Source: Escherichia coli 042
GTDB taxonomy: Bacteria > Pseudomonadota > Gammaproteobacteria > Enterobacterales > Enterobacteriaceae
Direction: 5' to 3' (one strand)
Length of the DNA: 64,000 bases
Assembly (NCBI RefSeq): GCF_000027125.1
Contig: NC_017626.1
Under the pieces are notes generated by a model, which saw only the letters and a list, made by a program, of their open reading frames with translations, searched no databases and had not been told where the DNA came from. The position numbers and the translations under genes were made by a program. This document shows, piece by piece, positions 33,477 through 64,000 of this stretch (the stretch's first letter is position 1; each line of letters begins with the position of its first letter).

Positions 33477-33630
33477 TTAGGTATATTGATAAGAACAATT
33501 CTTATTTATTTGCTCGCCAGGAATTTTCGGAATAAATATGCTTTTGCATAATTCGATATATAAAGAATGTGTAGAGGAAAAGTAGCGAGAAATTCTGCAT
33601 GGTTATGCATAACCATGCAGAAGTGTAAAT

Positions 33631-34518
33631 TTAATTAATGTCTAATTCTTTTATTTTGCTCTCTTTGCGTACTGTCAGCGTAGAACCCATTGAAGCGGCG
33701 ATGATAGCGCCGAGCGCCAGCAGCTGTATGGGTGTCAGTGTTTCTCCGAGGAAAATCATCCCGGAAACGGCAGCCAGCGCCGGTTCCATGCTCATCAGCG
33801 TACCAAATGTCCGCGTTGGCAAACGGGTGAGGGCAATCATTTCCAGCGAATAAGGCAGAGCGGTCGAGAGAATAGCGACAGCCAGACCCAATGGAATAAC
33901 CGACCAGTGCCAGAGTGCTTCACCAGCCTGAAGCGCTCCAATTGGCACGAAAATTAACGCTGCAATCAACGAACCAATTGCCACCGTCGCAGGGCCATGT
34001 TCCGCTCCTGCGCGTTGCCCACTTAAAATGTAAATAGCCCAACAAGCCCCGGCCCCCAGTGCCAGCGCACAGCCGGTTAAATCGACATGGGAAACGTCTT
34101 GCCCCAGCGGTAGCAGGAACCACAGACCAAGAACCGCCAGCACAACCCAGACGAAATCTACCGGGCGACGAGAAGAGAACAGCGCCACCGCCAGTGGTCC
34201 GGTGAACTCCAGCGCCACCGCAATACCCAGCGGTACCGTCTGAATAGAAAGATAAAAAAGATAATTCATCCCACCCAGCGAAACGCCGTAAAACAACAGC
34301 GGTAATCGTTGCTCTTTGGCAAAGCGCAGTCGCCATGGCTTAAAGAACGCGATGAGGATAAGCGTTCCTAATGCCAGACGCAGCGCAGTGACACCCGGTG
34401 CACCCACCAGAGGAAAAAGTGACTTAGCTAACGAGGCTCCACCCTGAATAGACGCCATGGCGACGAGCAATATGACTATTGGTAACCAGACCGGCATTTT
34501 ACGTAATGAACCAGGCAT
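33631..34518 (-). CDS. rhtA: Threonine/homoserine exporter RhtA (DMT/EamA family)
   Basis: 295 aa from ATG 34518, 10-TM DMT-type protein. Confidence 0.92.
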   Translation of the reverse strand: MPGSLRKMPVWLPIVILLVAMASIQGGASLAKSLFPLVGAPGVTALRLALGTLILIAFFKPWRLRFAKEQRLPLLFYGVSLGGMNYLFYLSIQTVPLGIAVALEFTGPLAVALFSSRRPVDFVWVVLAVLGLWFLLPLGQDVSHVDLTGCALALGAGACWAIYILSGQRAGAEHGPATVAIGSLIAALIFVPIGALQAGEALWHWSVIPLGLAVAILSTALPYSLEMIALTRLPTRTFGTLMSMEPALAAVSGMIFLGETLTPIQLLALGAIIAASMGSTLTVRKESKIKELDIN

Positions 34519-34870
34519 CCTTTCTCCCACAAATATCTAAACCTAAGTAAAGCGTGGAGTGTACTGGATATACCCAATGCTGGTTGAGCATTTGTTGAAA
34601 AAATTTCCCCCCGTTTTGACTAAAATGCGCCAGGATTGATGGAATCATTAGTCTGATGATTAGGAATAATCTGGATGAATGACAGGGAAAACATGCGTAA
34701 TACTTACGCAGTTCTCTGAAAAAGTGATTTAAATTTAGATGGATAGCGGTGTATGGAAACGTTCTGTTACATGAAATGGCCCGTTAGACATCACAAATCG
34801 CGAAGAGTTTCCCATTAATTTTTGATATATTTAAAACTTAGGACTTATTTGAATCACATTTGAGGTGGTT

Positions 34871-35401: not shown

Positions 35402-35436
35402 AAAAAATCCGCCTCTCGGGGCGGATTTTTTGTTTT
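35402..35436. terminator. Bidirectional rho-independent terminator shared by ompX and opgE
   Basis: aaaaaatccgcctctcggggcggattttttgtttt: GC stem flanked by an A-run and a T-run. Confidence 0.7.
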
Positions 35437-41976: not shown

Positions 41977-42020
41977 GTTATTATCAGTAGCCCTGATATG
42001 GTCAGGGCTACTGAAACTGA

Positions 42021-57227: not shown

Positions 57228-57404
57228 TTACGTTTGAATATTGCTTGAAAGGGTAATCACCTCACAGGAAATTATTGCCCTAAGCAAGTGTTGTAACTTT
57301 CTGCTGATTTTGTAGAATCGGGTAATTTGGTTAAAAAGCCGCAGCAAGGGACAATTTTTGCAGCGGTACAGCGTTCAGATAGTTATTTTGTTAAATGTAT
57401 TAAC

Positions 57405-59753
57405 ATGCTGAGTTTATACGAAAAGATAAAGATAAGGCTGATAATTTTATTTTTATTGGCAGCACTGTCATTTATTGGTCTTTTTTTCATCATTAACTAT
57501 CAACTGGTATCGGAGCGCGCGGTAAAACGTGCCGATAGCCGCTTTGAACTTATTCAGAAAAACGTTGGCTATTTCTTTAAAGATATTGAACGTTCGGCCC
57601 TGACATTAAAGGACTCACTGTATTTATTAAAAAATACAGAGGAGATTCAACGCGCCGTGATTCTTAAAATGGAAATGATGCCATTTTTAGACTCGGTGGG
57701 ACTGGTACTTGATGATAATAAATATTATCTCTTTTCGCGGAGGGCGAATGATAAAATCGTAGTTTATCATCAGGAACAAGTAAATGGACCGCTTGTCGAC
57801 GAGTCAGGGCGGGTTATTTTTGCCGATTTTAACCCATCGAAACGACCGTGGTCGGTGGCTTCAGATGACTCTAACAACAGCTGGAATCCGGCATACAATT
57901 GCTTTGATCGTCCGGGTAAAAAATGTATCTCTTTTACGCTACACATCAACGGCAAAGATCACGATTTGTTAGCGGTGGATAAAATTCATGTCGATTTAAA
58001 CTGGCGATATCTGAACGAGTATCTTGATCAAATCAGCGCTAATGATGAAGTTCTATTTTTGAAACAAGGCCATGAGATCATTGCCAAGAATCAACTCGCG
58101 CGTGAAAAACTGATTATTTATAATAGCGAAGGTAATTATAATATTATTGATTCTGTCGATACTGAATATATCGAAAAAACATCAGCGGTGCCAAACAACG
58201 CATTATTCGAAATCTATTTTTATTATCCTGGCGGTAATTTATTGAACGCATCAGATAAACTTTTTTATCTGCCGTTTGCTTTCATTATTATCGTATTGCT
58301 GGTGGTTTATTTAATGACCACTCGTGTGTTCCGTCGGCAATTTTCTGAAATGACAGAGCTGGTTAATACGCTGGCGTTTTTGCCTGACTCAACGGATCAA
58401 ATCGAGGCTCTGAAAATTCGCGAAGGCGATGCGAAAGAGATTATCAGCATCAAAAAATCGATCGCGGAAATGAAAGATGCCGAAATTGAACGGTCAAATA
58501 AATTGCTCTCACTGATCTCTTACGATCAGGAAAGCGGTTTTATTAAAAATATGGCGATTATTGAGTCCAACAATAATCAGTATCTGGCTGTGGGGATCAT
58601 CAAACTGTGTGGTCTGGAAGCCGTGGAAGCGGTGTTTGGTGTTGATGAACGCAATAAAACCGTCAGGAAATTGTGTCAGCGAATTGCCGAGAAATATGCG
58701 CAATGCTGCGATATCGTGACATTTAATGCCGATCTCTATTTACTTCTGTGCCGGGAAAATGTACAGACATTTACCCGTAAAATAGCGATGGTAAACGATT
58801 TTGACAGCAGCTTTGGCTACCGCAATCTGCGCATCCATAAGTCTGCCATTTGTGAACCTTTGCAGGGGGAAAACGCCTGGAGTTACGCAGAAAAACTGAA
58901 ACTGGCGATTTCCAGCATCCGTGACCATATGTTCTCAGAGTTTATTTTCTGTGATGACGCGAAACTCAACGAAATAGAAGAGAATATCTGGATTGCGCGT
59001 AATATTCGCCATGCAATGGAAATTGGCGAACTATTCCTGGTCTATCAGCCGATCGTTGATATTAACACCCGCACCATTCTGGGCGCGGAGGCGTTGTGCC
59101 GTTGGGTGTCTGCGGAGCGGGGGATCATTTCACCGCTAAAGTTCATTACCATTGCTGAAGATATCGGGTTTATCAATGAGCTGGGTTATCAGATTATTAA
59201 AATGGCAATGGGTGAATTCAGGCATTTTAGCGAGCGTGCGGTTCTGAAGGACGGTTTCTTACTGCATATTAATGTTTCGCCCTGGCAGTTAAACGAACCA
59301 CACTTTCATGAGCGTTTTACCACCATCATGAAAGAAAACGGTCTGAAGGCGAACAGCCTCTGTGTTGAGATCACTGAAACCGTGATCGAGCGAATTAATG
59401 AACATTTTTATCTCAATATTGAACAACTGCGTAAACAAGGGGTACGGATATCGATTGATGACTTTGGCACCGGTTTGTCAAACCTGAAACGTTTTTATGA
59501 AATTAATCCAGATAGCATAAAAGTGGACTCGCAATTTACCGGCGATATTTTCGGTACTGCGGGAAAAATTGTGCGCATTATTTTCGATCTGGCACGCTAT
59601 AACCGGATTCCGGTGATTGCGGAAGGCGTAGAGAGCGAAGATGTTGCGCGCGAATTAATCAAATTAGGATGTGTTCAGGCTCAGGGGTATCTGTACCAGA
59701 AACCCATGCCATTCTCCGCCTGGGATAAAAGTGGAAAATTAGTAAAAGAGTAG
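57405..59753 (+). CDS. pdeI: c-di-GMP phosphodiesterase PdeI (YliE; membrane-anchored EAL domain)
   Basis: 782 aa from ATG 57405; N-terminal TM, C-terminal EAL motif (GAEALCRW). Confidence 0.92.
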
Positions 59754-59760
59754 TTTACGT

Positions 59761-61089
59761 ATGTCCAGAATCAATAAGTTCGTACTTACAGTCAGTCTGC
59801 TGATTTTTATCATGATTTCAGCAGTTGCCTGCGGGATCTACACTCAAATGGTAAAGGAACGGGTGTATGGCCTGAAACAGTCCGTTATTGATACTGCTTT
59901 TGCGGTGGCAAATATTGCTGAATATCGGCGTAGCGTGGCAATTGATCTCATCAACACGCTAAACCCCACGGAGGAACAGCTGTTGGTTGGCTTGCGCACA
60001 GCTTACGCCGACTCGGTTTCACCCTCTTATTTGTACGATGTCGGTCCTTATCTGATTTCCAGTGACGAATGTATTCAGGTAAAGGAGTTCGAGAAAAATT
60101 ATTGTGCAGATATTATGCAGGTTGTGAAGTATCGACATGTCAAAAATACAGGGTTTATCTCTTTTGACGGTAAAACTTTCGTCTATTACCTCTATCCGGT
60201 AACTCACAATCGCAGTCTGATATTTTTGCTTGGTCTGGAGCGTTTTTCTTTACTGTCAAAATCGCTGGCGATGGATAGCGAGAACCTGATGTTCTCTCTG
60301 TTTAAGAACGGTAAACCGGTGACCGGTGATGAATATAATGCTAAAAACGCCATCTTCACCGTTTCGGAAGCGATGGAGCACTTCTCCTATTTGCCGACCG
60401 GATTGTACGTATTTGCGTATAAAAAAGATGTTTATTTGCGGGTTTGTACGTTGATTATTTTCTTTGCCGCATTGGTGGCAGTGATATCGGGTGCCAGTTG
60501 CCTCTATCTGGTACGCAGAGTGATTAATCGTGGTATTGTGGAGAAAGAAGCCATTATTAATAACCATTTTGAACGCGTACTAGATGGCGGGCTTTTCTTT
60601 TCGGCTGCCGATGTCAAAAAACTCTACAGTATGTATAACTCGGCGTTCCTGGACGACCTGACTAAAGCGATGGGCAGAAAATCCTTTGACGAAGATTTAA
60701 AAGCGCTACCGGAAAAAGGTGGTTATTTGTGCCTGTTTGACGTCGATAAATTCAAAAACATCAACGACACCTTCGGTCATTTGCTGGGCGATGAAGTGTT
60801 GATGAAAGTGGTGAAAATCCTTAAATCACAGATCCCGGTAGATAAAGGTAAAGTCTACCGCTTCGGCGGTGACGAATTTGCGGTGATTTATACGGGTGGA
60901 ACGCTGGAAGAGTTGCTATCGATTCTAAAAGAAATCGTTCATTTCCAGGTGGGAAGCATTAATTTAAGCACCAGTATCGGTGTAGCGCATTCAAATGAAT
61001 GTACTACCGTCGAACGCTTGAAAATGCTGGCGGATGAGCGGCTGTATAAGAGTAAGAAAAACGGCAGGGCGCAGATTAGCTGGCAGTAG
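59761..61089 (+). CDS. dgcI: Diguanylate cyclase DgcI (YliF; GGDEF domain)
   Basis: 442 aa; RFGGDEF motif near the C-terminus. Confidence 0.93.
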
Positions 61090-61103
61090 AATTAGAATAG
61101 TGT

Positions 61104-61129
61104 TAGTACCCCTTAATCAAGGGGTACTA
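61104..61129. repeat. Perfect 11-bp-stem hairpin between dgcI and the toxin-antitoxin module
   Basis: tagtacccctt-aatc-aaggggtacta; no flanking T-run on either strand. Confidence 0.5.
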
Positions 61130-61158
61130 ATGAATGTGGTAAATCATTTGCAAACATT

Positions 61159-61488
61159 TTACTTTGCAAAAACTTCCGGTCCTTTTATTGCCAATGTATT
61201 CAAAATACGTAGTGCCGGGCCGCTCGGTTTTATTTCATTTCGTTCCCATTTCGAGACACTTTCTTTTGACATTCCCATTGTATGTGCCAGCACGGATTGT
61301 GACATGCCGTATCGGGTGCGGATGGCTTTGATCTCTTCACCCGTCATTGATTTGACTTTGGCTATACGGGCGCTGACTTCACGAGCTTTGACCATGACGG
61401 CAATGGCATCAACTTCACTATCAGACATCAGGCCCAGTGCATTCAGTTCCTTTGCATCTTCCAGCATCATTTGTAATTTATCGCTCAT
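61159..61488 (-). CDS. XRE-family helix-turn-helix antitoxin candidate (HigA-like)
   Basis: 109 aa; HTH segment MSQSVLAHTMGMSKESVSKWERNEIKP; GAGGTG RBS; overlaps the upstream toxin-like ORF by 11 nt. Confidence 0.7.
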   Translation of the reverse strand: MSDKLQMMLEDAKELNALGLMSDSEVDAIAVMVKAREVSARIAKVKSMTGEEIKAIRTRYGMSQSVLAHTMGMSKESVSKWERNEIKPSGPALRILNTLAIKGPEVFAK

Positions 61489-61864
61489 TTTTCACCTCAA
61501 TCAAAAAGCCAGTTTCGATCAAATCCTCTATTTGCTTATTGCTAAAGGCCAGAAATGCATTTGCCATTTTTTTGTAGGCCACCAGTTCATCATCTTCGAT
61601 TTCTTTGGTTCCTTTACTGCTTAGACCACTCTTGGACCAACCATCATAAAAAAACACATGATTTGCTGATTTAAAAAAGATAATTGTTCTGGCTCCACCA
61701 CTCTTTCCTTGTTGGAGGGGTAAACGTTTTTTGATGACACCGCTACCTAAATCAGCCTCCCATATGCCTTGCATCACTTCTTCAGCGGCAGCCATGAGAA
61801 CTTTATCGTGAATACCAAGTTTTTTCGTGCTTTGGCTGAATCGTCTTGCCTTATACACACCCAT
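61478..61864 (-). CDS. Type II toxin candidate, RelE/ParE superfamily (HigB/Gp49-like)
   Basis: 128 aa; AGGATGG RBS; toxin-first arrangement with a downstream HTH partner as in higBA; family assignment is from memory. Confidence 0.65.
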   Translation of the reverse strand: MGVYKARRFSQSTKKLGIHDKVLMAAAEEVMQGIWEADLGSGVIKKRLPLQQGKSGGARTIIFFKSANHVFFYDGWSKSGLSSKGTKEIEDDELVAYKKMANAFLAFSNKQIEDLIETGFLIEVKNER

Positions 61865-61879
61865 ACATCCATCCTTGTG

Positions 61880-61905
61880 GTAATGTTTACTATAGTAACC
61901 ATTAC
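61880..61905. promoter_or_regulatory. Candidate operator of the toxin-antitoxin operon
   Basis: gtaatgtttactatagtaaccattac, 24 of 26 positions palindromic, 16-40 bp upstream of the toxin start. Confidence 0.45.
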
Positions 61906-62088
61906 GCTTATTTCAAGTAATTGCGATCAAAACTTTAATTTGGTGTGAAAAAGTGAGAGTTGCCTCGAGTATGATTCATTTTTCTCGATTTATACGTCAG
62001 GGGATTTTGTGCGTAAGGGTAGGACATGGGAAGGGTAGCAGAGGCAGATCGAAGAACAATATCCTTGTTAGATCTGCCTTTAGATTAA

Positions 62089-63414
62089 TTAAACCCGGCT
62101 ACCCCACAAATCGTACTCATCGGCGTGCTCGACTTTCACACGCAGGATATCACCTGGCTTAACGTTGGTTTCACCATTGAGATAAACCGCGCCGTCGATT
62201 TCCGGTGCATCTGCCATGCTGCGACCAATCGCGCCTTCTTCGTCCACTTCGTCGATAATCACCAGAATTTCACGGCCCACTTTCTCTTGCAGGCGCTCGG
62301 CGGAAATCTGCTGCTGCAGCTGCATGAAACGGTTCCAGCGTTCTTCTTTCACTTCTTCCGGAACCTGGTCAGGCAGGGCATTGGCGTCCGCACCTTCAAC
62401 CGGGCTGTATTTAAAGCAGCCAACGCGATCCAGACGTGCTTCTTTCAGGAAGTCGAGTAGCATCTGGAAATCTTCTTCCGTCTCGCCAGGGAAGCCGACA
62501 ATAAAGGTTGAGCGTAAGGTCAGTTCCGGGCAGATTTCGCGCCACTGTTTGATGCGCGCCAGTTGGCGATCTACAGAACCCGGACGCTTCATCAGTTTGA
62601 GAATGCGCGGGCTGGCGTGCTGCAACGGAATGTCCAGATACGGCAGGATTTTGCCTTCTGCCATCAGTGGGATGACGTCGTCCACATGCGGATAAGGGTA
62701 AACGTAGTGCAGACGTGTCCAGATCCCCAGTTTCGATAACTGTTCGCACAGGCTGACCATGCTGGTTTTTACCGGCTCGCCGTTGTGGAAGCCAGTACGA
62801 TGTTTAACATCGACGCCATAGGCGGAAGTATCCTGCGAGATCACCAGAATCTCTTTAACGCCCGCATCAACCAGACGTTTAGCTTCACTTAACACTTCGC
62901 CGATCGGACGGCTCACCAGGTCGCCGCGCATAGACGGAATAATGCAGAAGGTGCAGCGGTGATTACAGCCTTCCGAAATTTTCAGATAGGCATAATGACG
63001 CGGCGTCAGTTTCACACCTTGTTCTGGCACCAGGCTCAGGAATGGGTTGTGTTTCGGTTTTGGCACGTAGTGATGAACGTGCTCCAGAACCTGCTCATAG
63101 CTATGAGGCCCGGTGATTTCCAGCACTTTCGGGTGGACTTCGCGGATCTGATCTTCTTTTGCCCCCAGACAACCGGTCACAATTACCTTGCCGTTTTCAT
63201 TCAACGCTTCACCAATGGCTTCCAGTGATTCTTGTACCGCGCTGTCAATAAAGCCGCAGGTGTTGACGATCACCATGTCCGCATCGTCATAGCTCGGTAC
63301 CACGTCATAACCTTCAGTGCGTAGTTCGGTGAGAATACGCTCTGAATCGACAAGGTTTTTCGGACAGCCAAGGGAAACAAAGCCGATTTTCGGCTGGGGA
63401 GTTACTTTGCTCAT
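62089..63414 (-). CDS. rimO: Ribosomal protein S12 methylthiotransferase RimO (radical SAM)
   Basis: 441 aa; CNHRCTFC radical-SAM cluster. Confidence 0.96.
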
Positions 63415-63626
63415 AGCTTAAAAAATATTCAGTTACAGGAAAGGTCAGGGCAGGGATTCTACAGAGTTCTGGATAAAATTTGTATCGCAATCTCATTCGC
63501 TGGCGGAGGCGAAGGAAATGTAAATTTTGTTAATTCGGCGTGAAGAATTGATCCTGGACAGCATTTTGCTCAAAAAATAGCCATACTATTTAATTGCAAC
63601 AAGGCTGGAAAGAGGAGGATCGAAGT

Positions 63627-64000
63627 ATGTTCGTTGACAGACAGCGAATCGATCTGCTGAACCGGTTGATCGACGCACGCGTTGACCTCGCTGCATACGT
63701 GCAACTGAGGAAGGCAAAAGGATACATGTCCGTCAGCGAAAGCAATCATCTACGAGATAACTTTTTTAAACTGAATCGCGAACTGCACGATAAATCGCTG
63801 CGGTTGAATCTTCATCTGGATCAGGAAGAGTGGAGTGCTCTTCATCATGCTGAAGAAGCATTAGCGACAGCCGCAGTATGTTTGATGAGTGGGCACCATG
63901 ATTGCCCGACTGTTATTACCGTCAACGCCGATAAGCTTGAAAATTGTCTGATGAGCTTAACGCTGAGTATCCAGAGCCTGCAGAAGCACGCCATGCTTGA
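63627..64000 (+). CDS. bssR: Biofilm regulator BssR, N-terminal part (CDS runs past window end)
   Basis: ATG 63627 with GAGGAGG RBS; frame open to window end (MFVDRQRIDLLNRL...); not in the ORF track because there is no stop. Confidence 0.85.
   Translation, partial: MFVDRQRIDLLNRLIDARVDLAAYVQLRKAKGYMSVSESNHLRDNFFKLNRELHDKSLRLNLHLDQEEWSALHHAEEALATAAVCLMSGHHDCPTVITVNADKLENCLMSLTLSIQSLQKHAML

Follow-up and report, generated by a model that had tools for sequence, protein, structure and literature searches.

A perfect hairpin without a U-tract between dgcI and a RelE/Xre toxin-antitoxin operon in Escherichia coli 042, and its probable place at transcript 3' ends

The perfect hairpin that lies between dgcI and a converging toxin-antitoxin operon in Escherichia coli 042 is proposed to be the 3'-end stem-loop of that operon, held in common with the converging dgcI transcript. 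A probability of roughly 0.6 is given to this reading. It was preferred because the structure is predicted to be stable on both strands and is U-less, because stem-loops occupy the corresponding position in relatives, because a tract with C in excess over G follows it, and because a published class of transcript ends has this form. It was also preferred because the K-12-type spacer found in its place is itself a U-less hairpin, because both alleles at position 61114 keep their stability, and because two other long perfect hairpins of the window (the whole 64,000-nucleotide stretch analysed here) directly follow stop codons. The hairpin is real and forms part of a strain-specific segment; most likely, it is an ordinary stem-loop at the 3' ends of two converging transcripts.

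The features of the locus are collected in Table 1. The operon is of the toxin-first type, with a RelE-family toxin gene followed by an Xre-type helix-turn-helix (HTH) antitoxin gene, and dgcI converges on it. The antitoxin gene, on the minus strand, ends with a stop codon at 61159-61161, and the hairpin follows 28 nt later; on its other side, the hairpin stands 13 nt past the stop codon of dgcI. The original prediction had correctly placed the hairpin between these two stop codons.

Table 1. Coordinates in the window of the hairpin and of the features around it
Feature	Position	Strand	Remarks
dgcI stop codon	61087..61089	+	TAG here, TAA in K-12-type genomes; left breakpoint at the third base
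C-rich, G-poor 60 nt directly 3' of the hairpin (toxin-antitoxin sense)	61043..61102	-	19 C, 6 G
Perfect inverted repeat, 12-bp stem and 4-nt loop	61103..61130		TTAGTACCCCTT-AATC-AAGGGGTACTAA
Sole polymorphism seen in the hairpin	61114		T (window and about 696 genomes) or G (O157:H7 EDL933 and about 440 others)
Antitoxin gene, 109 aa, Xre-type helix-turn-helix (Pfam HTH_3)	61159..61488	-	
Toxin gene, 128 aa, RelE family (Pfam PF06296)	61478..61864	-	first in operon
Operon promoter TTGAAA-16-TATAGT	61880..61916 (promoter about 61889-61916)	-	overlapped by palindrome
Palindrome over the promoter, presumed antitoxin operator	61880-61905		GTAATGTTTACTATAGTAACCATTAC on + strand
Second U-less stem-loop, right end of segment	62042..62079	-	AGGCAGATC-N20-GATCTGCCT; 10 nt downstream of rimO stop codon

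An 11-bp stem with a 4-nt loop had been described at 61104-61129, and this core (TAGTACCCCTT-AATC-AAGGGGTACTA) was confirmed exactly in sequence and coordinates. One further pair, T61103/A61130, brings the perfect stem to 12 bp, and in the plus-strand RNA G61102-U61131 makes a 13th pair. The stem contains four consecutive G-C pairs; its G/C pairs are at the top and its base is A/U-rich. For the 28-nt hairpin, RNA folding of either strand gave -17.2 kcal/mol (z between -4.6 and -5.1), and the DNA fold of the 44-nt stretch 61095-61138 containing it was calculated at -11.5 kcal/mol (z -6.3); at most 1 in 200 dinucleotide shuffles was found to fold equally well. When perfect stems of at least 12 bp with loops of 3-8 nt were counted, first-order Markov simulations gave a chance expectation of 0.05 per 64 kb, and four loci with such stems were found in the window. 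With an expectation this low, the hairpin is not a product of chance. Because it is palindromic, a stem-loop is predicted in the RNA of both converging transcripts. A permissive Rfam scan of 60900-62200 returned matches at chance level only (E 5-10), and a similarity of 75-81% between the hairpin and 61707-61722, inside the toxin gene, concerns coding sequence and was treated as chance.

Canonical intrinsic terminators were recognized by a G/C-rich stem of about 5-14 bp with a loop of 3-8 nt, and by at least five U among the eight nucleotides after the stem. The hairpin has the stem-loop (12 bp, 4-nt loop, -17.2 kcal/mol) but not the U-tract. Only three T occur in the first eight nucleotides past the stem on each strand, no U-run follows the stem on either strand, and a terminator scan did not list the hairpin, all in agreement with the earlier view that, lacking a T-run, it is no canonical intrinsic terminator. 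A bidirectional terminator for the convergent pair was considered because the location fits, and was rejected because the flanks contain no 5' A-tract and no 3' U-tract; on the plus strand they read GTG...TGA, and A or T tracts are absent. The bidirectional intrinsic terminators seen at 35402-35431 in the window and in Proteus, Pantoea and Chimaeribacter are likewise palindromic and located between convergent genes, and those of the relatives also stand where the hairpin does with respect to the antitoxin stop codon. Unlike them, the hairpin is not flanked by A- and U-tracts, and the base of its stem is A/U-rich instead of G/C-rich.

A weak, non-canonical form of intrinsic termination, in which Rho-free pausing and release would work in both directions, perhaps aided by head-on collisions between dgcI and operon transcription, was judged improbable. 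Its appeal is that the palindrome lies between convergent genes and would form in both RNAs, that canonical bidirectional terminators stand at the same position in relatives, and that collision-assisted termination at hairpin elements has been reported (bioRxiv 10.1101/2022.10.23.513370). Against this, both the U-tract and the A-tract are missing, and an A/U-rich base beneath a G/C top is the reverse of what is found in efficient intrinsic terminators.

A class of transcript ends with a closer likeness to the hairpin was described by Dar and Sorek (2018; PMC6061677). In that study, Rho-dependent E. coli transcripts were found to end just past stable stem-loops, which are reduced in U, have neither U-tails nor upstream A-tracts, are followed by an enrichment of C over G, and protect against PNPase and RNase II. 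The hairpin shares with this class a stable stem-loop after a gene, the absence of a U-tail and of an upstream A-tract, and the excess of C over G downstream on the toxin-antitoxin sense strand. It differs in that the dgcI sense strand has no such excess, and in that it would serve two converging units. In the 60 nt that follow the hairpin in the toxin-antitoxin sense, C/G is 3.2, which places this stretch in the top 1.3% of 60-nt windows ranked by C minus G. The tract resembles a Rho-utilisation tract; it is also the antisense of dgcI coding sequence, and may not have been selected for Rho loading. In the dgcI sense, the sequence past the hairpin has a C/G of about 1.1. Thus, the Rho signature is found in one direction only, and for dgcI just a protective or pausing role is suggested.

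On the 3'-end reading, transcription of the minus strand from the operon promoter would traverse the toxin gene, the antitoxin gene and then the hairpin. It would next enter untranslated, C-rich and G-poor RNA antisense to dgcI, where Rho could load and terminate, and 3'-to-5' exonucleases would trim the RNA back to the stem-loop, so that the mature 3' end would be both set and protected. The dgcI transcript would carry an equally stable stem-loop shortly after its stop codon, as a protective structure in its 3'-UTR. In addition, the hairpin may act as a pause site that fixes the meeting point of the converging polymerases, in keeping with the work of Wang et al. (bioRxiv 10.1101/2022.10.23.513370), in which the position of head-on polymerase collision between convergent genes was reported to be set by an element encoding a hairpin. 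Rho dependence, exonuclease protection and any effect on dgcI are points that we infer. Searches of the literature for the locus or for the O157 locus tags gave nothing usable, and the supplements of E. coli 3'-end mapping studies held nothing for the neighbouring genes. A weak terminator-like site was also noticed at 61214-61238 on the plus strand (GCCGGGCCGCTCGGT then TTTATTTCAT), within the antitoxin gene and antisense to it; this site could stop dgcI read-through past the hairpin.

Related modules were compared for what follows the antitoxin gene. An antitoxin scan of species representatives gave five loci only, and the relatives were extended by plasmid tblastn. In all, 16 modules were compared, which are chromosomal in Kluyvera, Siccibacter, an Enterobacterales MAG and Proteus, and plasmid-borne in Providencia, Xenorhabdus, Pantoea, Erwinia, Salmonella, Klebsiella, Chimaeribacter, Pseudomonas and Vibrio. 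Sequence homology to E. coli was observed to halt at the antitoxin stop codon across these 16 modules. A strong stem-loop was nevertheless present no more than 40 nt past that codon in 11 of the 16, with no clear stem-loop in the other five. At least six of the 11 are canonical intrinsic or bidirectional terminators (Providencia heimbachae, for example AAAGCCCCUAAAUCAGGGGCUUUUAUCUUUC; Proteus; Pantoea X85; Erwinia; Chimaeribacter; Pseudomonas), and Kluyvera and Pantoea dispersa have U-less stem-loops as in E. coli. The E. coli hairpin sits in the terminator position of the operon and is analogous, not homologous, to the elements of the relatives. The occurrence of unrelated stem-loops at the same position after the antitoxin gene points to a role at the transcript end.

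The Kluyvera sichuanensis locus (1-5327, compared with 57327-63800 of the window) encodes the toxin and an antitoxin 74% identical to that of E. coli 042. Its gene order, gsiB-gsiC-gsiD / antitoxin-toxin / bssR, preserves the neighbourhood and orientation, and pdeI-dgcI and rimO are missing between gsiD and bssR. The module may therefore be an old resident lost by most E. coli and not a recent insert.

U-less stem-loops at gene ends recur in the region. At 41985-42013, a perfect 12-bp hairpin (CAGTAGCCCTGA-TATGG-TCAGGGCTACTG) is found 9 nt past the ybiT stop codon, without a T-run and with REP-like sequence after it; its arm AGTAGCCCTGA is similar to the arm AGTACCCCTGA of the hairpin carrying G at 61114. 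A minus-strand gene (33631-34530) is followed, 8 nt past its stop codon, by a perfect palindrome of 30 bp at 33593-33622 (TTCTGCATGGTTATGCATAACCATGCAGAA), after which there is only a partial T-run. REP elements are present in hundreds of copies per genome. As a REP or BIME element would be, the hairpin between dgcI and the operon is an extragenic palindrome at a gene end, but this assignment was ruled out, since the hairpin is found at one locus per genome and has no REP consensus.

Comparison with the K-12-type spacer located the ends of the strain-specific segment at 61089 and 62083. Identity to the K-12 type runs as far as base 2 of the dgcI stop codon and restarts at ATTAATTAAACCC, at about 62084. 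In K-12-type genomes, the dgcI stop codon is followed by an intergenic spacer of 46 nt up to the rimO stop codon, and the part that differs from the window is 42 bp long (ATCATTATTCGCAGGCCGGACAAATGATTTTGCCCGGCCTGA), counted from the last base of that codon. This empty site does not contain the hairpin, whose presence there had been named as the finding that would refute the earlier interpretation. No significant similarity was detected between the K-12 spacer and the segment, the best local alignment score being reached by 11% of shuffles; a 10-mer (CAAATGATTT) common to the K-12 spacer and the opposite strand of the segment was attributed to chance, since the alignment p is about 0.11. Because the K-12 spacer is unrelated, the segment is a replacement by alternative sequence, not a clean insertion. 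The earlier description of the hairpin as the left edge of an insert therefore stands in part: it is near the left end of a strain-specific segment, but its stem begins 14 bp inside that end, off the junction, and the segment is a replacement. This "insert" may reflect either gain or loss.

The K-12-type spacer consists of one strong U-less hairpin (CAGGCCGG...CCGGCCTG; -20 and -23 kcal/mol) between dgcI and rimO. It occupies the same slot as the hairpin of E. coli 042, between convergent genes, is also U-less, and has similar or greater stability; it differs in its unrelated sequence and in serving dgcI and rimO. In the window, unlike in K-12, there is one hairpin for dgcI and the operon and another for rimO. 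The U-less stem-loop at 62042-62079 is likely the 3'-end stem-loop of rimO, and it replaces the single K-12 dgcI/rimO hairpin on the rimO side. A different arrangement was seen in E. coli NCCP12480 (2790-2872 of its locus), where dgcI is directly followed by ybjM-grxA-ybjC-nfsA-rimK, which implies that a deletion or rearrangement took out rimO and its neighbours.

The suggestion that the hairpin marks the insertion boundary or is a recombination site was not borne out. The breakpoint is at 61089, neither direct nor inverted repeats join the two ends of the segment, with nothing at the right boundary (about 62083) to match the hairpin, no recombinase is encoded near the hairpin or in the segment, whose only genes are those of the toxin and the antitoxin, and the hairpin is single-copy. 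A function at the DNA level, whether as such a boundary or recombination site or as a palindrome bound by the HTH antitoxin or by some other dimeric protein, is accordingly given a very low likelihood. The proximity to the left breakpoint, the absence from empty sites, the perfect palindromy and the single insertion of an IS481-family element at this place would suit it, whereas the missing partner at the other boundary, the missing recombinase and the single copy would not.

Binding by the antitoxin was considered in relation to the presumed operator over the promoter. A palindrome upstream of the toxin gene is kept in eight relatives as GTAm-N3-kTAC TATA GTAm-N3-kTAC, overlapping the -10 box. 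This operator palindrome is made up of two 11-bp mini-palindromes, with L006, L007, L008, L010, L011, L021 and L022 among the loci that have it. Compared with the outer half of the Providencia-type operator, one arm of the hairpin agrees at 11 of 13 positions (GTTAGTACCCCTT vs GGTAGTACCCATT). However, this match was found post hoc, and equally good ones arise at rates of 2.8% among random segments of the window and 5.8% among hairpins of matched composition. Moreover, the spacing is 4 bp shorter (GTAC-N14-GTAC vs GTAm-N18-kTAC), the conserved core TTACTATAGTAA is missing, the E. coli operator uses GTAAT and not GTACC, and the relatives have no such palindrome after the antitoxin gene. An assignment of the hairpin to the operator family was rejected in view of the absent core, the reduced spacing, the location at the 3' end and an arm similarity with p of 0.03-0.06, and the resemblance between arm and operator is probably due to chance. 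The specific proposal of a distal operator-like site, at which the bound HTH antitoxin would keep dgcI transcription from reading through into the operon, or would form a loop with the promoter operator, is the least credible of those considered; if it were true, toxin-antitoxin autoregulation would be linked to the neighbouring c-di-GMP gene.

Of 5426 complete E. coli genomes, 1128-1138 have the segment, and the remainder have the K-12-type junction. The hairpin was found in 1138 genomes, and in these carriers it is always at the same locus, between dgcI and the toxin-first RelE/HTH module. The search for further copies that had been proposed at the outset yielded none: a 71-nt query detected one locus per genome, and the 64-kb window holds no other copy. 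An apparent "second copy" in about 697 genomes proved to be a self-match of the palindrome on the opposite strand (42.8 bits, E about 0.26 at 28 Gb), which drops out for the allele with one further mismatch. With the stem alone as a pattern and the loop left free, one match was obtained in viral contigs and six in metagenome contigs; three of these are E. coli copies of the same locus, and four are unrelated palindromes with other loops and flanks.

Variation within the hairpin is confined to position 61114. The G allele opens the loop-closing pair, so that the loop grows to 6 nt and the perfect stem shrinks to 11 bp, with 10 of its pairs in the predicted fold; the stability of the two alleles is the same. 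In E. coli CFSAN018748, an IS481-family element of about 1.2 kb (300-1510 of the locus) is inserted exactly in the hairpin loop, with inverted repeats that begin TGTATTAG and a 7-bp target duplication, CCTTAAT. This strain is a natural knock-out of the hairpin. Both genes are still annotated as intact in it, and the hairpin is therefore dispensable for viability. In E. coli BS-01 (470-690 of the locus), the antitoxin region is a degraded, homopolymer-rich stretch, most likely an artefact of assembly or basecalling, and was left out.

These data also bear on the view that the hairpin is a neutral relic, a formerly canonical terminator or a fortuitous palindrome that arrived with the flanking DNA of the module and has no selected function. 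The lack of a U-run, the restriction of the sequence to one species and one locus, the tolerated IS insertion, a level of variation too low to reveal constraint (two alleles at one variable position) and the resemblance of the stem top, CCCCU...AGGGG, to the terminators with GCCCC...GGGGC in the modules of Providencia, Pantoea and Chimaeribacter are all compatible with such an origin. However, a 12-bp perfect stem is very unlikely to arise by chance, the sole polymorphism is neutral for stability, and, whatever its origin, a stable hairpin in transcribed 3' sequence stops exonucleases. A relic is thus unlikely, though it deserves some weight.

What does the hairpin mean for this locus? The significance beyond annotation is little, but the picture of the locus is corrected: the segment is a replacement and not a clean insertion, its breakpoint is at the dgcI stop codon, and each gene end has its own U-less stem-loop. 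The 3'-end stem-loop proposed here marks the likely 3' limit of a chromosomal, uncharacterised RelE/HTH operon that about one in five complete E. coli genomes carry, O157:H7 among them, and suggests how the operon is probably separated from converging dgcI transcription.
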